Position numbers and translations under genes: made by a program. Below, piece after piece: positions 21,568 to 30,220 of a DNA stretch of 30,220 nt (position 1 is the stretch's first letter; each line of letters starts with the position of its first letter). The notes below the pieces were generated by a model. That model was not told the DNA's origin. It was given only the letters and a program-made list of their open reading frames with translations, and made no database searches. Source of the DNA: Bacteroidota bacterium (GTDB lineage Bacteria > Bacteroidota > Bacteroidia > Chitinophagales > Saprospiraceae); NCBI GenBank assembly GCA_038530915.1, contig JBCBCD010000001.1, forward strand, positions 1 through 30,220. The letters run 5' to 3'.

Positions 21568-22116
21568 TTATGCGTTAACAGTGGCTAAAGCTGGAGCAGC
21601 TGGGAAATCAACTGGCACCTGAGTCGTTTTGTGCAAGAAGTTGCTGATGATTTTATCACCAATCACGACCAAAATATCTACCAAATTAGCTTCATTATAA
21701 CCAGCTGCAAACAATTTCTCTTTAGTAGCATCGCTAGTAGTTCCTCTTTCTTCAGTAATTTCTTTTACGAATTTAACCAAGGCATCGGTTTTAGCATCGA
21801 AAGAAGCACTACCGCCACGGATCTCAAGGATTTGATCATCTGTGAAGCCATTCATTTTACCCAAAGCGGTGTGAGCAGCCAAACAGTACTGACATTCATT
21901 CACTTGGCTCACTACCAAATTGATCACCTCTCTCTCCTTAGCTTTAAGGGTACTTTTACGGTTTTGAAAAGCAAGGTAATCGCCCAGAGCGGTATCGTTG
22001 TAAGCAAAAGTAGCATACAAATTAGGAACGAAACCTACCATTTTTTTCAAATTGTCAAAAATAGCTTGGTTGTTTTCTGATACTTGATCTCTGGTTGGAA
22101 CTGCAAAAGCTTTCAT
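21568..22116 (-). CDS. Carboxymuconolactone decarboxylase / AhpD-like alkylhydroperoxidase
   Basis: GFVPNLY, REVINLVVSQVNECQYCLAAH (CxxC-x3-H motif). Confidence 0.88.
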   Translation of the reverse strand: MKAFAVPTRDQVSENNQAIFDNLKKMVGFVPNLYATFAYNDTALGDYLAFQNRKSTLKAKEREVINLVVSQVNECQYCLAAHTALGKMNGFTDDQILEIRGGSASFDAKTDALVKFVKEITEERGTTSDATKEKLFAAGYNEANLVDILVVIGDKIISNFLHKTTQVPVDFPAAPALATVNA

Positions 22117-22177
22117 TGTTGTTGTTATTTTGTTATTGATTAATTACACCACAAAGATGCAGGCAAAAAGGAGGGGA

Positions 22178-22217
22178 GGAGTAGGATGAATTTCCCGGGG
22201 AGTAGGATTTTTTTCCC
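22178..22217 (-). promoter_or_regulatory. Direct-repeat operator candidate (21-bp period)
   Basis: ggagtaggatgaatttccc and ggagtaggatttttttccc, upstream of a near-consensus -7 element (CATCTTTG, 22152-22159 on -). Confidence 0.5.
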
Positions 22218-22255
22218 ATAGGGCATAATTCATAGGTCATAGGTCATAGGTCATA
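22217..22255. repeat. Heptamer repeat (CATAGGT)x3 exact plus degenerate flanks
   Basis: cataggg cataatt cataggt cataggt cataggt cata. Confidence 0.85.
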
Positions 22256-22511
22256 CTCTGTGAAACTCTTGCGACACTATGGTGAGGAAATGTATACATT
22301 TGGTAAGTAAGAACCTTTTTTATCTTGTGATCTTGCGATGATTTAAGTTGAGTATTTTGTTATTTTGGTTTAGCAAAAGCAGCTATGACAGCATAAAAAC
22401 ATAACAGCATGGTTACTTGCTGGAATAAATTTCACCCAACCTCCATCACAAAATGATCGTACCTGCCAGAGCAGCCATGACAGCATAACAAGATGAAAAG
22501 ATAACAAGATG

Positions 22512-22543
22512 AAAAAAAGCCGAAGCCGTTACCGACTTCGACT
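22512..22543 (-). terminator. Rho-independent terminator of the SPOR pair
   Basis: Minus-strand agtcgaagtcg-gtaa-cggcttcggct (11 bp, 2 G-U) followed by a T-tract, 29 nt after the stop at 22573. Confidence 0.8.
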
Positions 22544-22572
22544 CAAAAAGCCACAACTTACCAGACCAGGTT

Positions 22573-23271
22573 TTACAGGATCCTTATGCCTTGAAGGTCT
22601 CGGACAAAGCCTTGAAGACTTTGCTGTAGCTTGAATTGTTGTATATCAGATCTGTTGAGAAAAGGACCTAACAGTAGTTTGTACGGAATAGTACTGTTGG
22701 GATCATAGCCCAATTGGACCAATGAGCCATAGTTGGAGTAATAGCTTTCAAATGTGGTATAGGCGTTTTGTTCCAGCTTAAAAGCATGCAGTTGTAAGTA
22801 GAGCTTTTGATTGGCAATGGCTTTTTGTGGCTTTGCTGGTTTTGGTTTAGGGGATGGACTTGGAACTGAAGTTTCGTAAGTAGTTGGAGTAAGTGTCGAT
22901 TCAGAAGGAGTAGACGCTTCTGACTTTACTTTAGGAGCTAAGTTAAATGGTATAGACTGTGTAGTTGATGATGGAACCAAAGTTTCTTGTTTTCTGCTTT
23001 TTGGTTTTTGTTGGGAAGATGGGCTGGTCTTTCGCTCTATTGTTTCCAATAACAGGTAGCCGGTAAATGAGATCACCACAAAGATCAGTAAACTAATGAT
23101 GTAAGTGTACTTGGTTTTTAGATTCAGAAAATCATCAGTCACTCTTTTCTTGACGGGAATCAACTGAATCACTAAGTTTCCTATGCTTTTTTGAAACTTC
23201 CTAACAATAAGTAGCCCAATAATAAGCGAGAGGAATACTTGGAAATACTGAAAAAGAACCATTAAAGTCAT
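22573..23271 (-). CDS. Membrane protein with C-terminal SPOR domain
   Basis: Two N-terminal hydrophobic segments, Ser/Pro/Lys linker, then LYLQLHAF..NA..YKLLLGPF. Confidence 0.75.
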   Translation of the reverse strand: MTLMVLFQYFQVFLSLIIGLLIVRKFQKSIGNLVIQLIPVKKRVTDDFLNLKTKYTYIISLLIFVVISFTGYLLLETIERKTSPSSQQKPKSRKQETLVPSSTTQSIPFNLAPKVKSEASTPSESTLTPTTYETSVPSPSPKPKPAKPQKAIANQKLYLQLHAFKLEQNAYTTFESYYSNYGSLVQLGYDPNSTIPYKLLLGPFLNRSDIQQFKLQQSLQGFVRDLQGIRIL

Positions 23272-23358
23272 TTAATCAATTTTTGTGTTTAAAATGTTTT
23301 CGTTGGTGCGAATGAGTTGGGTTGTTCTTTTCCGGTAAGCGGCTTCTATGCTATGCTT

Positions 23359-23955
23359 TTACCATTCAATAATATGACTGTTGATGCTAAGCTCTTTTTG
23401 ATACCTTTTGGCCAATGATTTTTCCTCAAATGGTCCAATTAAGAGTTTGAATAAGTTTTCATAAGGCTCCAATTGCAGGTTTATGAACTGCCCCTTGTAA
23501 TTGTTGTAAGCATGGGCTGCATTTCTGTAATCCTTGAAGGCACCTATTTGTATGTAGTATTTTGGACCGTGCATGATATTCGAAAAAAGGGAGCTCTCCT
23601 CCGCAGAATCGAGCTCCTGGCTGAACGGAATGAACGGTATGTCTTTAGGGGTTTGTTTTTTGGCCAGACTCACCTTTTGCAATGGCAAGTTGTCATCTAA
23701 TCCTATATTCTGAAAATTGGTCCATCGTGAAAAAGCTACCAATAAGCCTATGATCAATGTAACGAAGATTAGGAAATACATAAATGCATTGCTGTCTCTA
23801 TTGTGGTATCTGGGGTTTAGAAAAGTTGGGTCTTGCCATTGTCTTTGTGACATCGGCAGCTGATTGTTGTTAGACATTTTGTTGCCCATCAGCATGCCTA
23901 TTATAATGCCTGCGAGAAGTAGAATGATCAGTAAGTTAAGGTTGTCCATAGTCAT
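23359..23955 (-). CDS. Membrane protein with C-terminal SPOR domain
   Basis: Two hydrophobic segments, then YYIQIGAF..NA..FKLLIGPF. The start could be 23949. Confidence 0.8.
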   Translation of the reverse strand: MTMDNLNLLIILLLAGIIIGMLMGNKMSNNNQLPMSQRQWQDPTFLNPRYHNRDSNAFMYFLIFVTLIIGLLVAFSRWTNFQNIGLDDNLPLQKVSLAKKQTPKDIPFIPFSQELDSAEESSLFSNIMHGPKYYIQIGAFKDYRNAAHAYNNYKGQFINLQLEPYENLFKLLIGPFEEKSLAKRYQKELSINSHIIEW

Positions 23956-24161
23956 TCAGTATGTTCTATTTTCTGTGACTATGACACTTCCCAAACCAAT
24001 TTTAATAAGGAGACATCATTATTTTATTGCTTTGAAGATTATTTTGATTTTTTTAAAAAAAAGCGAAGAATTCTCAATTGGTAAGTGTATACGATAGGAA
24101 AACGATTTACAAACACTACAATTAACTTATTTACTAATTGTAAAAAATCAAACATAATACA

Positions 24162-24569
24162 ATGAGCCACCATCTAACTAAGCTCCTCTGCTCTGTTGAA
24201 GTAAGAGCTTCATCGGACGCTTCTTTAAAAATATTGGATAATTTACTGAAAAGTTATATCCCAGAATTATTCCTTAAGTCTCCATCCATCCGTGATGACT
24301 TAACATTTATTTTGCAAGAGGAAAATGCGGAATGCCTCTTACAAGAATATCTCGATTCACTAAGTCTAGCAGGAACATTTAACATGGATGAACTATATGA
24401 CTTACTTCTGGGAATCCATTACATATATATAGATGATAAGCTTAATTCTATTTATGAAGTAGAAAATGTTCTGAATGCAAGTAAAGATCAAACTTCTTTT
24501 TTCTTAGAAAATTATTACCAAGCAAATCAAGCTGTATGTAAAATTAATGTTGTAAAATCTTCAAAATAG
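24162..24569 (+). CDS. Hypothetical protein (135 aa)
   Basis: ATG-initiated ORF, first of the rightward run; acidic and helical; no family recognised. Confidence 0.65.
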   Translation: MSHHLTKLLCSVEVRASSDASLKILDNLLKSYIPELFLKSPSIRDDLTFILQEENAECLLQEYLDSLSLAGTFNMDELYDLLLGIHYIYIDDKLNSIYEVENVLNASKDQTSFFLENYYQANQAVCKINVVKSSK

Positions 24570-24680
24570 CCTATGTATCTATAACAATTATTTAATCTTA
24601 AAAGAGAATATTTTCCATTTGGCATGTGTAGAAGTAGTGTAATCAAGTTACTTATATCTATCCACTTCAAAATAAATACT

Positions 24681-25235
24681 ATGGAAAAGGGTAAGAAATC
24701 TGAAAAGCAGTGTGAGAGGTCGCTTGCCGAAGCAATTTATGTAGACCATCACAAAAAACTCTATCTACACGCCAGGGTGTTAACCAGAAGATACAAGCTT
24801 ATGAGTGATTTTGCTCAAGACTTGATACAAGAACTCTTTTGTGATATTCTCGATAAGGAAGATCAATATAGAGAAGGTATAAAAACGAAAGGTTATTCTT
24901 ACTTGTACAGAGCTTTGATCAACAAAACAAAGAATTTCAAGCGTGATAAGGAAACTCGTATTCAATATGAAGAATTAGCAAGTAGAAACAATGATGTAGG
25001 TTTGCCCTTCGAAATGAAGTTCAATAACCAAAAACAGTCCTTCTATGACTTCATGAAAGATAAACTAACAGAAAAAGAATACAAAGTAATGAGAAGATAT
25101 TTACTTAACTGTACACAATCTCAAATTGCTGACTCCCTAGACATTCCACAAGGAAGTGTGGGTAGAATAATTAAGAACTCTAAAGAGAAGCTTCGATGCC
25201 ATAAAGCAGAGTTTGATTTACTTCTTTACATATAA
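24681..25235 (+). CDS. ECF-like sigma-70 family RNA polymerase sigma factor
   Basis: Region 2-like AQDLIQELF..YLYRALINKTKNFKR; region 4 HTH SQIADSLDIPQGSVGRIIKNSKEKLR. ATG at 24681 preferred (ORF open from 24624). Confidence 0.75.
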   Translation: MEKGKKSEKQCERSLAEAIYVDHHKKLYLHARVLTRRYKLMSDFAQDLIQELFCDILDKEDQYREGIKTKGYSYLYRALINKTKNFKRDKETRIQYEELASRNNDVGLPFEMKFNNQKQSFYDFMKDKLTEKEYKVMRRYLLNCTQSQIADSLDIPQGSVGRIIKNSKEKLRCHKAEFDLLLYI

Positions 25236-25245
25236 ACCTCTATTT

Positions 25246-25587
25246 ATGCGAGCCACTATAACTCAGCCAAGTTTATTCACTGAAGAACCTATATTATTGG
25301 ATTATAGTCTGTTGAATGAATTGATCAAAGAGCTAATGCCAGAACTTTTAGATGGAAGTAAAAAATCTAAAAGGCTACTCAAAAGAATAGAAATTTTTCT
25401 CTTTTTCGACAGTAGTTATACCAGCGAATTATTAGCTAATGAATTAAGGTCAGAATTATACAATGCTTTTCGTGGAATCAAATCTATCAATGTTGTAAAG
25501 AATATCAACTTGATAGAATGGTATTTAGAAGAAAAGAAACGTGAATTTGGCCAATGGTTGGATCAAGCTATTCAATCCAAAAGATGA
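25246..25587 (+). CDS. Hypothetical protein (113 aa)
   Basis: ATG 10 nt after the sigma-factor stop; helical; no family recognised. Confidence 0.65.
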   Translation: MRATITQPSLFTEEPILLDYSLLNELIKELMPELLDGSKKSKRLLKRIEIFLFFDSSYTSELLANELRSELYNAFRGIKSINVVKNINLIEWYLEEKKREFGQWLDQAIQSKR

Positions 25588-25655
25588 GTATGAGTATTTA
25601 GCCATTTACTTCAAGACCAGGATTGCACTTTTTTTATTCACCACAATCCTGCACA

Positions 25656-26702
25656 TTGAACAAACAAACGCGCAACCAACACCTGCAAAACAAGATCGTT
25701 TTTTGCAGCATTAAAAGTGTGAGGGCCATGGGCGAGTTGATCAAAACAGATCCACAACGGATGTACCTGCTCGCCCAACAGCCTCAATACAAAACTTTCT
25801 CCATCCCTAAAAAAGACGGAGGCAAACGTGAAATTGAAGCTCCTAATCTGGATCTTAAAAAAGTATTGGGCAGGCTCAATCGCTACCTGCAATCTGTTTA
25901 TGTTTTTGAAAAATCCAGTGCGGTACATGGTTTCGTTACTTCGGTAAAGAATGATGCTGATCGACGCAGTGTCGTATCTAATGCTCGCAAACATCTGGGT
26001 AAATCCTACCTGCTCAATCTCGATATAAAAGATTTTTTTCATTCCATCTCTCGCGAAATGGTGCTATCCATCTTTATCAATGCACCTTTTCATTTTAAAG
26101 GAGAATTGGCAGATCTATTGGCTGATCTGACCACTTTTCAGGGAAGACTACCAATGGGAACTCCTACTTCTCCGGTACTATCCAACCTTGCTTGTCGAAC
26201 GCTAGATGAGCAACTGCTTGATTTTTGCCAGCAAATGCTTTGGTCCTATTCTCGCTATGCCGATGATATGAGTTTTTCCTCCAATCAAGTCATTACCAAT
26301 GAAAAGATGTATTCTACCATTGCGATTCTGAGAGAATGTGGCTTTGAAGTCAACAAAAAGAAAATGAAAGTATATGGCCCTGATGAAGCCAAAATAGTGA
26401 CCGGTTTATTGGTTTCTAAGGAAAAAGTAGCTTTGGCTCCAGATTTTCTGAAAATACTAAAAGATGACCTGCAAAAATTGGAAGCCATCGTCAAAGCACA
26501 ACAAGAACAAGGGCAACTGACTACCCACTGGGTAGAGCAGCACAAAAAACAAGTCAAAGGACGAATTAATTTTGCTGGTTTTGTGCTTGGAAAATCTAAT
26601 CCGGAATACATGCAACTCAAAAGTAGCTTTTATTCTGCCATTTCTCCACCACAAGAAGAGTTTGGTGCCATGAGCTGGCGAGGATTTCCCTACAACCTTT
26701 AG
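25656..26702 (+). CDS. Reverse transcriptase with retron-type signatures, adjacent to cas1 (not fused)
   Basis: IPKKDGGKREIEAP, NARKH (25980-25994), LDIKDFFHSI, LPMGTPTSPVLSN, YADD (26256-26267), VTG (26397-26405). Start uncertain: TTG 25656 preferred; TTG 25623 or ATG 25728 possible. Confidence 0.93.
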   Translation: MNKQTRNQHLQNKIVFCSIKSVRAMGELIKTDPQRMYLLAQQPQYKTFSIPKKDGGKREIEAPNLDLKKVLGRLNRYLQSVYVFEKSSAVHGFVTSVKNDADRRSVVSNARKHLGKSYLLNLDIKDFFHSISREMVLSIFINAPFHFKGELADLLADLTTFQGRLPMGTPTSPVLSNLACRTLDEQLLDFCQQMLWSYSRYADDMSFSSNQVITNEKMYSTIAILRECGFEVNKKKMKVYGPDEAKIVTGLLVSKEKVALAPDFLKILKDDLQKLEAIVKAQQEQGQLTTHWVEQHKKQVKGRINFAGFVLGKSNPEYMQLKSSFYSAISPPQEEFGAMSWRGFPYNL

Positions 26703-26703
26703 C

Positions 26704-26788
26704 GTAGGGCGAATTTTACATTCGCCTCACCCAAAAGGTAGCTTGGAATTCATTCCAACAAAAAAGGTACTGCAGAATTTATTCTGCA
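26704..26788. repeat. Cluster of three GTAG/GTAC-headed palindromes (REP-like)
   Basis: GTAG-ggcgaat-tttac-attcgcc; GTAG-c-ttggaat-tc-attccaa; GTAC-tgcagaat-tt-attctgca. Confidence 0.75.
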
Positions 26789-26901
26789 TTCAAGCAGATC
26801 CACTTACTAATTGGCTTTGAAAGCATATTACTCGACTCAAACTGACGATTCTCTATTTTTTAAATCATGCGAACGTAAAGTTGGCACTACACAACAACCC
26901 A

Positions 26902-27879
26902 ATGCAACTCGTTTTAGATACCAAAGGATTAAAAATCCAAAAGAAGAATGGCACCTTTCTTGTCATCTCCGAAAAAGGAGAACGATCTATTAGTCCGGCC
27001 AAACTCAGTAGTATTGCCATCACGGCTACTGTTGAACTCAGTACGGATGCCATATTGCTGGCTGTAGATAATCAACTGCCTATCATTTTTTTTAACCGCA
27101 TAGGAAAGCCTCAGGCCCGTCTATGGAGCCCTTATTTTTCCAGTATTTCTACCTTGCGCAGGCAACAGATCCTGTTTGCAGAAATTCCGGAAGCAACCTC
27201 CTGGATGGTCAGTCTGTTTGAAATTAAAACGGAACAACAACTGCAAACCATCAAATACCTCAAACAGAAAAATGGCCGTCTCAACATTGCGCTTACTACT
27301 GCAAGCAATGGCATCAAACGCAACGGTAGAAACCTGGACAACTATCGTGGGATGATATTAGACAAAGCTCGTCCTTCTTTGCTGGGAGTGGAGGGGAGTA
27401 TAGCACGCATCTATTGGCAGGCGGTGGGTAATGGCATTCCTCGAGTATATGGTTTTTCAGAACGTAGTCGACGCCCTGCCAAAGATATCTTCAATGCAGC
27501 ACTGAATTATTTATACGGCATGCTTTATTCTGTGGTTGAAGGTGCAATTTTTGCAGTAGGATTAGACCCACATCTGGGCATTTTTCATGTTGATGCACAC
27601 GACAAACCGACTTTGTCATTTGATCTAATTGAGCCTTTTCGACCTTGGGTGGATCTTTTATTAGTAAAACAGTGCTATGAGGGAACACTGAAGAAAAGCC
27701 AATTTACACAAAACAGATATGGCATCTTTTTAAATAAAGAAGGAAAAGCGCATTTCATACCGGTATTCAATGACTTCATGCGATCGAAACTTATTTTTTT
27801 AGACCAAGAGGCGAGTGTCAAAAACCACATACATTATCTGGCAGGCCAACTCGCACAACGCATTAGAAGCAGTTTTTAG
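26902..27879 (+). CDS. cas1: CRISPR-associated endonuclease Cas1
   Basis: LLGVEGSIARIYW (E), NAALNYLYG, LGIFH (H), SFDLIEPFR (D/E); ATG at 26902. Confidence 0.95.
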   Translation: MQLVLDTKGLKIQKKNGTFLVISEKGERSISPAKLSSIAITATVELSTDAILLAVDNQLPIIFFNRIGKPQARLWSPYFSSISTLRRQQILFAEIPEATSWMVSLFEIKTEQQLQTIKYLKQKNGRLNIALTTASNGIKRNGRNLDNYRGMILDKARPSLLGVEGSIARIYWQAVGNGIPRVYGFSERSRRPAKDIFNAALNYLYGMLYSVVEGAIFAVGLDPHLGIFHVDAHDKPTLSFDLIEPFRPWVDLLLVKQCYEGTLKKSQFTQNRYGIFLNKEGKAHFIPVFNDFMRSKLIFLDQEASVKNHIHYLAGQLAQRIRSSF

Positions 27880-28015
27880 TCATGCTGTCATGCTATTATG
27901 CTGTCATGCTGTTATGCTGTTATGCTATTATGCTATTATGCTGTTATGCTGTTATGCTGTTATGCTGTTATGCTGTCATGCTATTATGCTATTATGCTGT
28001 CATGCTCTCATGCTG
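27880..28015. repeat. Octamer tandem repeat TYATGCTR x17
   Basis: 17 contiguous 8-nt units (136 nt; one unit ends in C) starting at the first base after the cas1 stop. Confidence 0.95.
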
Positions 28016-28202
28016 TTATACTCTAATCTAACATTACTTTATCGGTCTTGTCAGGTCAGAATTTGCTTTTTCTTGAAGATTCCTTTGATGCTTAAATCAG
28101 TATTGAATCCTTTTTATCTTTTAAACAACATACGTTTCAATGATCCAAACAATAAACACAAAAGCTTTTAATCAAATCAACCAAATTGTTTTCAAACAAC
28201 CC

Positions 28203-29012
28203 ATGTACGCCAATAGGTTGCACATTAATACTTATTGGGAATTGGGGCGATACCTGTCTCTTTTATTGGCAAGAAAAGTGCTAGAATCTCCTGAGGATGT
28301 TTTCTATCTACTGGATTTGATTCCTGAATCACTAGCAAGGCATCTCAATAAGAAAAAACTACAACGATTATTGAAGCTGATCGAGTTATGGCCCAAGTCA
28401 AGCCTTTTGCACGCTACGCTTTCATGGACCCATTATTGTCAACTGATGAAACTAGAGGACAAAAAGGAAAGAGCGTTTTATACCGAACAAGCTGCCATTC
28501 ATCATTGGAGCTGTAAAGTGCTACAACGACAAATCAAATCTGACTTGTATCATCGGATCAGTAGAGTAGAGCAGATATTCAGAGACCAATATATACTGGA
28601 ATACATTCAAATTGACCCGCAATGGACCGAACAAATGCTTGAAAAAAAGTTGCTAACAAAGATTGAAAACACCTTGTTAGAATTGGGTGCTGGCTATACT
28701 TTTGTAGCTCGACAAAAACGGATAGTAGCTCCTAGCAGGAAGCCTTATTTCATCGATTTGGTCTTTTATAATGCTCATTTAAAAGCCTACGTTTTGGTAG
28801 ATCTCAAAAAGGAAGCCCTCAGCCATCGCGACCTTGGTCAAATGGATATGTACATGCGACTTTTTGATCAATTTATAAAGCACAAAGAAGCCGAGAAAAG
28901 TTATGGCTTGATCCTTTGTAAAAAAGTAGATCCCAGCCTCCAGGAATATAGTCTGCTGGCTGACTCCACCCATTTGAAAGTAGCTACTTATAGCTTTAAA
29001 CTTCCAGATTGA
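28203..29012 (+). CDS. YhcG/DUF1016-family PD-(D/E)XK nuclease-domain protein
   Basis: YWELG, LSWTHY, ERAFY, LLELGAGYTFVARQKRI, FIDLVFYN, VLVDLK, DLGQMDMY. Start ATG 28203 or 28140. Confidence 0.88.
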   Translation: MYANRLHINTYWELGRYLSLLLARKVLESPEDVFYLLDLIPESLARHLNKKKLQRLLKLIELWPKSSLLHATLSWTHYCQLMKLEDKKERAFYTEQAAIHHWSCKVLQRQIKSDLYHRISRVEQIFRDQYILEYIQIDPQWTEQMLEKKLLTKIENTLLELGAGYTFVARQKRIVAPSRKPYFIDLVFYNAHLKAYVLVDLKKEALSHRDLGQMDMYMRLFDQFIKHKEAEKSYGLILCKKVDPSLQEYSLLADSTHLKVATYSFKLPD

Positions 29013-29026
29013 GTCTAGAAACTTAG

Positions 29027-29100
29027 AGGAGGAGAAGGTTAATTTAATATACTCAACCCTAACCTTCTAACCCCCTAACCCTCTTCTAACCACATCAACC
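29027..29100. repeat. CTAACC-type short repeats with a partial inverted arm
   Basis: ttagaggaggagaaggtt ... aaccctaaccttctaaccccctaaccctcttctaacc, between the nuclease gene and cas2. Confidence 0.6.
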
Positions 29101-29120
29101 AATAAACTCATAAACCAACA

Positions 29121-29423
29121 ATGCCTTATCTAATCTGTTACGACATTTCTAAAGATTCCCTGCGTGCACGTTTGGGGAAAGAAATCCTAAAATATGGTCT
29201 GGATCGAATCAATAAATCCGTATATTTAGGATCAGCTAATAAAAGTTCTTTGACAAAATTGGAAAATTGGATAGCTCAGGAAATAGCTTCCAAAGGCGAT
29301 CCACAAGACAGCTGTATTATTATTGCTGTCGACAAAGAACAAGTACAACGCATGCGGATTTACGGGATCAGAAATTTTGACCCGGAAGAATTAAGCGGAG
29401 AGAAGAGCACTTTGATATTGTAA
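29121..29423 (+). CDS. cas2: CRISPR-associated endoribonuclease Cas2
   Basis: YLICYDIS, RINKSVYLG, DSCIII; 100 aa; directly upstream of the leader. Confidence 0.93.
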   Translation: MPYLICYDISKDSLRARLGKEILKYGLDRINKSVYLGSANKSSLTKLENWIAQEIASKGDPQDSCIIIAVDKEQVQRMRIYGIRNFDPEELSGEKSTLIL

Positions 29424-29777
29424 CTAATTAAATGCAATAAATTGTTTTATCATTATGTTAAGTAGAAAAGTATAAAATGCTACATAAAGTTATGGTTATG
29501 ATATACAAACACATGCTAACTTAGGCTAATGCCAGAAAAAGCTCATATATGAAAAAATAAATCTATTTTTTGTTTTATGTTTTTGGGTAAATTGCTGGAA
29601 ATCAGAAGGTTGTTTAATTTATATTGCAATAAGTTGTTATGTTAAAAATGCAAATTGTGAAAAAAACTTTCAAAAAAACGCTGTCGAAACAAGGTGTACA
29701 CGCAATGGTTGGGTGTAAATTGTTATGTGTAAGTTTTACAATTACAATTAATAATGAACATATTAAAATTCTTTGCG
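29424..29777 (+). promoter_or_regulatory. CRISPR leader
   Basis: 354-nt AT-rich non-coding stretch between cas2 and the first repeat. Confidence 0.75.
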
Positions 29778-30220
29778 GTATGAGTGCTGTCCATTAAGAG
29801 CGAGGACTAAGACCTGTCCCCAAATCAGTAAAGAATTCTGATGTTTCGGGTATGAGTGCTGTCCATTAAGAGCGAGGACTAAGACCATTTTTCAAGTGCT
29901 GCTATAGCATCTTGATTTCCTGTATGAGTGCTGTCCATTAAGAGCGAGGACTAAGACGAAACCTTTAACGCGAAAGTCTAATCCCAAAGAGGTATGAGTG
30001 CTGTCCATTAAGAGCGAGGACTAAGACTCTCTTCTGACTCATTGTCGTTGAGTCGGAAGACCAAGTATGAGTGCTGTCCATTAAGAGCGAGGACTAAGAC
30101 AAGCTGCGTTGAGAGCCATATAGTCCTTTCCTTCAGTATGAGTGCTGTCCATTAAGAGCGAGGACTAAGACTCTCCAAGTCAGGTAAATCAAGATTGTAC
30201 AGAACAAGTATGAGTGCTGT
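29778..30220 (+). CRISPR. CRISPR array, repeat GTATGAGTGCTGTCCATTAAGAGCGAGGACTAAGAC (36 bp), truncated by the window end
   Basis: Six identical repeats at 29778, 29850, 29922, 29992, 30065 and 30136, and a partial seventh at 30208. Six unique spacers of 36, 36, 34, 37, 35 and 36 nt. Internal GTCC/GGAC stem. Orientation inferred from the leader. Confidence 0.99.

Follow-up and report, generated by a model that had tools for sequence, protein, structure and literature searches.

We analysed a 30,220-bp window, the whole of contig C1 (GenBank JBCBCD010000001.1) in a 7.9 Mb assembly of 1468 contigs (GCA_038530915.1; 37.5% GC) from an uncultured marine Saprospiraceae-type bacterium. Here a stand-alone reverse transcriptase (RT) is encoded beside cas1, cas2 and a CRISPR array. 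These genes probably make up the adaptation module of a CRISPR-Cas system of type III whose RT was recruited from the retron lineage and not from group II introns. The evidence comes from the affinity of the enzyme to retron RTs, from its conserved linkage to cas genes across a clade of related loci, and from sister retrons that have the RNA which the CRISPR-linked loci lack.

A retron-type reverse transcriptase within a CRISPR adaptation module

From 24,162 to the contig end all genes lie on the + strand, in the order 135-aa open reading frame (ORF), sigma-70-like gene, 124-aa ORF, RT, cas1, YhcG/DUF1016, cas2, leader and CRISPR array. The adaptation module comprises the following features.

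25656..26702, + strand: stand-alone retron-type RT, 348 aa, TTG start (Pfam RVT_1 1.1e-19)
26703..26901, no strand: RT-cas1 spacer with three small GAAT/ATTC hairpins (folding z -1.2 to -1.3)
26881..27879, + strand: cas1 (Pfam Cas_Cas1 1.9e-63, TIGR00287 2.1e-65, PADLOC Cas1b 8e-76)
28140..29012, + strand: YhcG/DUF1016 PD-(D/E)xK nuclease (YhcG_C 1e-41, DUF1016_N 2.6e-18, PADLOC 'PD_DExK, CAS associated' 1.3e-24)
29121..29423, + strand: cas2 (Pfam CRISPR_Cas2 1.5e-13, TIGR01573)
29424..29777, + strand: AT-rich leader of 354 nt, between cas2 and the array
29778..30220, + strand: CRISPR array with the 36-nt repeat GTATGAGTGCTGTCCATTAAGAGCGAGGACTAAGAC, six identical full copies and a seventh cut by the contig end

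The array holds six spacers of 34-37 nt each. A first-pass annotation, made from the sequence of the window, had described an RT-cas1-YhcG-cas2-leader-array order with identical repeats, and the Pfam, NCBIfam and PADLOC matches bear this out. It had also reported the absence of a retron toxin effector; no toxin-type effector was found within the RT-cas1-YhcG-cas2 operon.

The RT ORF is open from 25623. Its start was placed at the TTG at 25656, because homologues share a conserved N-terminus (MxKxT..H....FC) and the same-genus orthologue likewise begins with TTG. This start, already chosen in the first-pass annotation, leaves 68 nt after the upstream ORF, which ends at 25587. The cas1 ORF opens at 26881; homologue alignments start at M8, which makes the ATG at 26902 the probable conserved start.

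Numbered from 25656, the RT contains NARKH at residues 109-113, YADD at 201-204 and VTG at 248-250. RVT_1 is its sole Pfam domain, and neither Pfam nor the predicted fold revealed a maturase, endonuclease, Cas1, sensor (CARF/SAVED) or effector domain, in agreement with the earlier description of an unfused enzyme carrying these motifs and no extra tail domain. The predicted structure has a mean predicted local distance difference test (pLDDT) value of 93 and ends with three helices and a short tail. Members of the CRISPR-linked clade described below have a mean divergence of ~60%, yet 39/39 share both catalytic aspartates, A and H of the NAxxH motif, and the threonine of [V/I]TG. Judged by its sequence, the RT is catalytically intact.

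The C-terminal tail has the pattern W341-x-x-F344-x-Y346, with the tryptophan present in 39/39 clade members and the phenylalanine and tyrosine each in 35/39, and is missing from sister retron RTs. pLDDT falls to 59 and 47 in the last two 10-residue blocks, and in the model the aromatic tail is probably flexible. A tail of such low confidence fits a short docking peptide, one that possibly binds Cas1-Cas2.

The enzyme belongs to the retron lineage

The first-pass annotation had assigned the RT to the retron lineage and not to the group-II-like enzymes, and profile, Protein Data Bank (PDB), fold and tree comparisons all agreed. The best PADLOC models were RT-TIR_XII, RT-Protease_XI and RT-Toprim_I-C (E 2e-73 to 4e-70, up to 246 bits, RT part only). 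In NCBIfam, retron families scored ~197 bits against 63 bits for group II RT/maturase, for which the cut-off is 300. A sequence search of the PDB placed retron Ec67, Ec86, Kva2, Ec83, Ec78 and Eco8 at the top (E 5e-27 to 3e-9), with group II RTs appearing only at ~1e-5 and no RT-Cas1 chain at E <=0.01. With Foldseek, the best fold match was retron Eco2/Ec67 (E 2e-22, template modelling (TM) score 0.70), followed by Ec86, Eco7, Ec78 and Ec83, and group II RTs were all lower. Across these four comparisons (PADLOC, NCBIfam, PDB sequence and fold), retron RTs outranked group II RTs by 10-20 orders of magnitude.

A tree was built from the CRISPR-linked clade and other retron-type RTs of related genomes, together with three RTs of group II introns and ten RT-Cas1 fusions from Bacteroidota. 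Its longest branch, of 3.7 substitutions per site (support 100), divides the retron-type RTs from the group II RTs and RT-Cas1 fusions. Taken together, these results identify the enzyme as a retron RT whose nearest types are XI, XII and I-C (Eco2/Ec67).

Another contig of the genome (C154) encodes a bona fide group II intron RT/maturase (L105 1303-2616, minus strand; TIGR04416, 392 bits). Thus the lineage from which CRISPR RTs usually derive is present in the same genome as the retron-type CRISPR RT.

The RT belongs to a CRISPR-linked clade

In the tree the window RT falls inside one clade of 68 rows (Shimodaira-Hasegawa-like approximate likelihood ratio test 99), and the CRISPR-linked RT clade is monophyletic. 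To characterize its surroundings, 80 loci were scanned, with one genome per species, and their ORFs were clustered and the clusters named. cas1 lies within 2.5 kb of the RT in 56 of 64 clade loci and is missing from all 12 scanned loci that fall outside this group, so that the RT-cas1 linkage on which the first-pass annotation had asked for a check across genomes proved consistent. Seven of the remaining clade loci, truncated or rearranged, carry Cas6, RAMP genes, Cas2 or an array, and one is a short uninformative contig. Over the 80 loci the recurrent neighbours are Cas1 (58), Cas2 (50), Cas6 (36), YhcG (16), the sigma-like gene (11), a SPOR-type gene (10) and the 124-aa ORF (9).

The modules of relatives adjoin type III effector genes: Cmr1, Cmr3, Cmr4, Cmr5, Cmr6, Cas10b and CorA (type III-B) at some loci, and Csm3 with Csm5 (type III-A or III-D-like) at others. 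The basal subclade has the order cas1-cas2-RT, and the remainder (Cas6)-RT-cas1-cas2-array. The window RT and the other YhcG-type loci form one supported subclade, distinguished by a YhcG gene between cas1 and cas2, a sigma-like block upstream and a long leader (333-668 nt); YhcG takes this place only here, at 16 related loci and in Haliscomenobacter hydrossis.

Pairwise distances of RT and Cas1 over 39 paired loci were correlated at r = 0.90 (maximum 0.34 in 1000 permutations), with equal mean divergence of the two proteins. Independent domestication of the RT for CRISPR adaptation, as put forward in the first-pass annotation, is accordingly the best reading, because the enzyme is unfused, is of retron lineage and has a clade-conserved linkage to cas1, cas2 and CRISPR arrays that is separate from the RT-Cas1 fusions.

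The clade is found mostly in Saprospiraceae and their relatives, and 3 of 12 family relatives carry members (G003, G008 and G012, the last with two copies). An even sample of 300 other Bacteroidota genomes added one further genome with a clade member; RT-Cas1 fusions were present in 22 of the 301 genomes of the even sample, and the clade in about 1-2. The added member (L126, G230:C15:70987-72030) scored 324 bits and has two in-frame TAA stops, which makes it a possible pseudogene. At nine loci (L006, L010, L015, L016, L018, L022, L033, L058 and L124) two arrays with the same repeat flank the adaptation genes, and at some of these the last repeat of the upstream array is at most ~150 nt from the RT start.

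The window adds a member to a catalogued lineage

A protein search returned more than 2000 relatives of ~347 aa, from Saprospiraceae, Phaeodactylibacter, Lewinella and H. hydrossis. The RT of H. hydrossis DSM 1100 is 56% identical to the window RT over 100% coverage (E 1.6e-122), and both have 348 aa. Its locus reads RAMP, EAD11, Cas6b, gap, SPOR gene (minus strand), sigma-like gene, small ORF, RT, Cas1, YhcG, Cas2 and gap. The window shares with it the order from the minus-strand SPOR gene through the sigma-like gene, small ORF, RT, cas1, YhcG and cas2 to the array, as well as a homologous 36-nt repeat. The two differ in that RAMP and Cas6b lie upstream in H. hydrossis, whereas the contig of the window stops within the array, with the type III genes of its genome located on another contig; the organisms also differ, as do the junk repeats in the RT-cas1 gap. 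None of this amounts to a functional distinction.

The H. hydrossis RT (GI 332661943) was reportedly annotated as CRISPR-neighbouring in the 2015 classification of Makarova. It was later identified as a 'retron/retron-like RT' with VTG (PMC5541045), served as a retron-like outgroup (PMC6013744) and was counted among the multiple origins of CRISPR RTs (PMC8934634). In the summary that PMC8632793 gives of Toro et al. 2019 (RNA Biol), the retron-like CRISPR RT is 'clade 14' of CRISPR-RTs; further sources for it are Toro et al. 2017 and 2018. The category is thus not new, being already in surveys, and the window RT adds a member to clade 14. The first-pass annotation was right to call the RT retron-like and CRISPR-associated and overstated its novelty, the lineage having been catalogued. 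It had also held that grouping with known CRISPR-RT clades would speak against its proposal; in one sense the RT does group with such a clade, clade 14 (H. hydrossis), and not with the RT-Cas1 fusions.

The retron RNA of sister loci has no counterpart in the clade

As a rule, a retron RT uses its own RNA both as sole template and for priming. Among RTs without a CRISPR link, the sister retrons L050-L052, L070, L071 and L085 stand closest in the tree; in them the RT follows a DnaB_C-like ATPase gene, and the RTs of L050-L052 and L071 are 31-35% identical to the window RT. Their ATPase-RT gaps measure 127-265 nt, and four of the five tested gave folding z-scores of -5.4 to -7.5 against shuffled sequences, with L070 at -0.3. 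The non-coding RNA (ncRNA) found there, ~180 nt long and upstream of the RT, is built like a classic retron RNA: it combines a long hairpin with a small, conserved one (GGTTGTGTACCTGCAACC) and with a1/a2 pairing over long range, and 12 of its 33 pairs show compensatory changes. Sister ncRNAs, each upstream of its RT, have the following coordinates.

L050: 9785-9970
L051: 9705-9892
L052: 9775-9964
L085: 1080-1273
L071: 9628-9804

A covariance model, R1, was built from four sister RNAs and used to search ~1 Mb of sequence. R1 recovered every sister locus, and in the untrained loci L071 (E 1e-5), L070 (0.04) and L089 (0.96) the RNA lay directly upstream of the RT; at none of the CRISPR-linked loci (60+) did the model give a credible match close to the RT. 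With filters off, its best match in the window reached 10 bits and lay between SPOR genes. The sister msr loop motif (TTGTGTACCTGCAA) was present upstream of sister RTs only, and when positions 22000-30220 were compared with Rfam at a threshold of E 5, the only two matches were at chance level. The gaps between the genes of the window are unstructured, with folding z-scores of -0.5 to -2.3, compared to -5.4 to -7.5 for the sister retrons; the lowest value belongs to the 68 nt before the RT, which fold slightly better than shuffles. In many clade members the Cas6-RT and RT-Cas1 gaps are -44 to 20 nt, and cas1 and cas2 overlap. The clade appears to have kept the retron enzyme while losing the retron RNA and effector, and the locus lacks two of the hallmarks by which a complete retron is defined, an adjacent msr-msd RNA and a cognate effector.

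Several candidate elements near the RT were rejected. The RT-cas1 gap was dismissed as a retron RNA on account of its weak structure (z -1.2 to -1.3), its dispersed hairpin and the unrelated inserts of relatives. The third hairpin of this gap (26760-26789), which resembles repetitive extragenic palindromic (REP) elements (AAAAAAGGTACTGCAGAATTTATTCTGCAT), turns up on 10 or more further contigs in this assembly. In the same-genus orthologue the gap is 55 nt and has no REP-like insert; in other members it is 1-20 nt or contains unrelated palindromes or microsatellites, such as (GTGA)n in L004. The long leader was discarded as a hidden ncRNA, its sequence being unstructured (z +0.4) and not conserved among relatives. 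A repeat-like sequence just upstream of the window RT was likewise set aside, as its local alignment score to the repeat, 16, was matched by 28 of 300 shuffles; L006, L010, L015 and L016, by contrast, do have a genuine second array whose end lies just upstream of the RT.

The RT-cas1 gap of H. hydrossis (L124:11048-11229) is a 182-nt near-perfect palindrome (minimum free energy -113 kcal/mol, z -18). It resembles an inserted miniature inverted-repeat transposable element (MITE) or REP, and nothing in the window corresponds to it.

Effector genes and spacers in the genome

Effector genes are absent from the window. Contig C363 (6.9 kb; L081 1-6884) carries Cas6 beside divergent Cas10/Csm1-Csm2-Csm3-Csm4-Csm5, a complete type III-A set. 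The window repeat is homologous to the repeats of related loci (GTAGGAG...GGACTGCGAC) and was found on no other contig of the genome. With no effectors in the window and its repeat confined to one contig, it is from the relatives that a link between this array and the type III-A module is inferred.

A possible continuation of the array at the end of contig C285 was rejected, since the 12-mer match there belongs to a different repeated sequence. The end of C285 and the start of C1330 share ~55 nt (…GGCAAGGCTACGACTTCTGATCTTAATGGACACC…), and the adjoining ~45 nt are mutual reverse complements; the shared end is an assembly-breaking repeat and not the CRISPR repeat of the window. No RNA-seq run contained the window sequence, the sole public run being marine metagenome DNA.

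Proposed function and alternative explanations

On our analysis, the RT is likely to act as a working subunit or partner of the type III Cas1-Cas2 integrase and would serve spacer uptake from transcripts. In this model, the free-standing RT would work with the Cas1-Cas2 integrase, possibly docking through its W-x-x-F-x-Y tail, and would copy foreign transcripts or extend RNA prespacers, such that spacers arise from RNA. In the subclade of the window, YhcG may trim prespacers in the manner of Cas4, and Cas6 would process CRISPR RNAs for a Csm or Cmr effector. An unlikely elaboration is that, together with the retron-specific NAxxH and VTG, priming from a 2'-OH has been kept and now takes place on foreign transcripts, giving branched RNA-cDNA prespacers that would pass to Cas1-Cas2 via the tail; if true, spacers would be made from RNA by a 2'-OH-primed mechanism that differs from the one used by group-II-like RT-Cas1.

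A number of observations weigh against recruitment for RNA-derived adaptation by a type III system. No physical connection joins the type III-A genes to the array of the window, as they lie on a different contig of a 1468-contig assembly, and contig C187 (L082 5325-9401) encodes a type I-B system with Cas8b, Cas7b, Cas4 and its own Cas1b. None of the six spacers had a target in the bacterium's own genome, and three searched against IMG/VR had no exact match. When the RT was modelled in complex with a dimer of Cas1, from our own alignments, the score was 0.29, below the 0.32 mark, a value that tells neither for nor against binding. Shared vertical descent explains part of the co-divergence of RT and Cas1. 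Retron RNAs diverge fast, and a differently shaped RNA may lie elsewhere, for instance overlapping a gene or in trans; the retention of NAxxH and VTG might mean that the enzyme still recognises a structured RNA. A literature search found no experimental work on clade-14 RTs. RT-dependent capture of spacers from RNA has been demonstrated only for group-II-like RT-Cas1 (PMC11014452; references in PMC8632793), and RNA-derived acquisition by the window RT is proposed by analogy with that unrelated RT lineage.

Less probable than RNA spacer capture, and still plausible, is that the RT is a type III partner with another role, either an accessory immune DNA output or the processing, priming or repair of DNA prespacers. 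Accessory genes are common in type III loci, nearby examples in relatives being CorA and an EAD11-domain protein, and retron-lineage RTs elsewhere are defence sensors or effectors. However, the RT itself has neither a sensor (CARF/SAVED) nor an effector domain, its place is fixed beside cas1 and not among the effector genes, and its divergence tracks that of Cas1. It is very unlikely that the locus is a retron-CRISPR hybrid, in which the RT would make a defined multicopy single-stranded DNA (msDNA) from a dedicated ncRNA, feeding or regulating Cas1-Cas2. The first-pass annotation had offered such a hybrid, with cDNA feeding Cas1-Cas2, as one of its readings, and the msr-msd it implies was not found, though it is obvious in sister retrons. 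The strict retention of the retron hallmarks NAxxH and VTG, the unusually long subclade leaders (333-668 nt) and the z of -2.3 in the 68-nt stretch before the RT would suit a hybrid. Against these stand the lack of any Rfam match, the blank R1 result in the window (best 10 bits) and in 60+ related loci, leaders that are neither conserved nor structured, RT-flanking gaps below 20 nt in many members, and window gaps filled by repeats that are dispersed genome-wide.

Chance is a poorer explanation still. On this view the RT is no more than a common retron, or a mobile retroelement, that came to lie next to a CRISPR locus, as was first suggested for the H. hydrossis copy (PMC5541045), an early survey's reading of the single known case. 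It draws some plausibility from the clustering of defence genes in islands and from the REP-like and microsatellite insertions in the window gaps. Yet the linkage recurs in 56 of 64 members across several Bacteroidota orders, RT and Cas1 co-diverge (r = 0.90), neither an ncRNA nor an effector gene is present, and at many loci the RT sits inside a Cas6-RT-Cas1-Cas2 operon with overlapping or abutting frames; the comparative data already contradict this explanation, which we regard as extremely improbable. Equally hard to credit is that the RT is a decaying, functionless remnant in the operon. The relative with two in-frame TAA stops (L126) speaks for decay, but the ORF of the window is intact, its catalytic and hallmark residues are invariant in 39/39 members at ~60% divergence, and its predicted fold has a pLDDT of 93.

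Comparison with known systems

The favoured reading, a type III adaptation module with a recruited retron RT, invites comparison with the group-II-like fusions (RT-Cas1, Cas6-RT-Cas1) that occur in type III and type VI systems, for example that of Marinomonas mediterranea MMB-1. These likewise place an RT in the adaptation module of an RNA-targeting CRISPR system, and the presumed role, spacer capture from RNA, is the same. In contrast to the fusions, the window RT comes from an unrelated RT lineage, is unfused and has NAxxH and VTG.

Retrons I-C (Eco2/Ec67), XI and XII provide the best profile, sequence and fold matches and share NAxxH, YADD and VTG. Unlike them, the window RT has neither an msr-msd nor a fused Toprim, protease or TIR domain; its constant neighbours are cas1 and cas2, and it carries the additional W-x-x-F-x-Y tail. 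The sister retrons differ from it in having their own ~180-nt ncRNA and an ATPase partner, and in having no cas genes and no aromatic tail. The Abi-P2-like RTs ('clade 15', type I-C CRISPR) are another independent recruitment of an RT from outside group II (PMC8632793, PMC8934634). They belong to a different RT lineage and CRISPR type, and Abi-P2 is only a distant fold match of the window RT, at rank 50.

New here are how large the CRISPR-linked clade is and that it is strictly monophyletic, its linkage to type III effectors, the invariance of its catalytic residues and the co-divergence of RT and Cas1. Also new are a sister retron with a defined ncRNA, evidence that the ncRNA was lost on recruitment, and a C-terminal tail specific to the clade.

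Other features of the window

Positions 1-24,000 hold common Bacteroidota chromosomal genes (TonB-type receptor, type IX secretion system cargo proteins, LytTR regulator, SPOR proteins). The features next to or between those of the adaptation module are as follows.

24162..25587, + strand: three co-oriented upstream genes, namely the 135-aa ORF, the extracytoplasmic function (ECF)-type sigma-70-like gene and the 124-aa ORF, which are conserved RT neighbours in the subclade of the window
24624-25235, + strand: ECF-type sigma-70-like gene (Sigma70_r2/r4, TIGR02937 5e-14)
25213-25587, + strand: 124-aa ORF, ending 68 nt before the RT start
27882..28019, no strand: (ATGCTGTT)x17 microsatellite in the gap between cas1 and the nuclease gene (Tandem Repeats Finder)

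Positions 22573-25587 hold a block, made up of the SPOR-type gene on the minus strand, the sigma-70/ECF-like gene and one or two small ORFs, that is conserved upstream of the RT at ~10 related loci and in H. hydrossis, where both the sigma-like gene and the 124-aa ORF are found. The small ORFs of the block had no Pfam or PADLOC match. Its conservation suggests a possible regulatory role for the block in this subclade of CRISPR loci. The (ATGCTGTT)x17 microsatellite yields a spurious 118-aa 'AVMLLCCH' ORF and is a simple repeat shared with dozens of other contigs of the genome.

Implications

As a free-standing 348-aa enzyme working with a separate Cas1-Cas2, the RT might offer a compact alternative for transcript-recording tools. 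The loss of the ncRNA, the invariant active site, the new tail and the co-divergence with Cas1 provide a concrete experimental handle on the clade. If the proposed role is correct, how a retron RT picks its templates and primes without its own RNA becomes a sharp question. Moreover, CRISPR adaptation would then have recruited an RT independently a second time, from retrons, which would show that spacer capture from RNA is easy to evolve.

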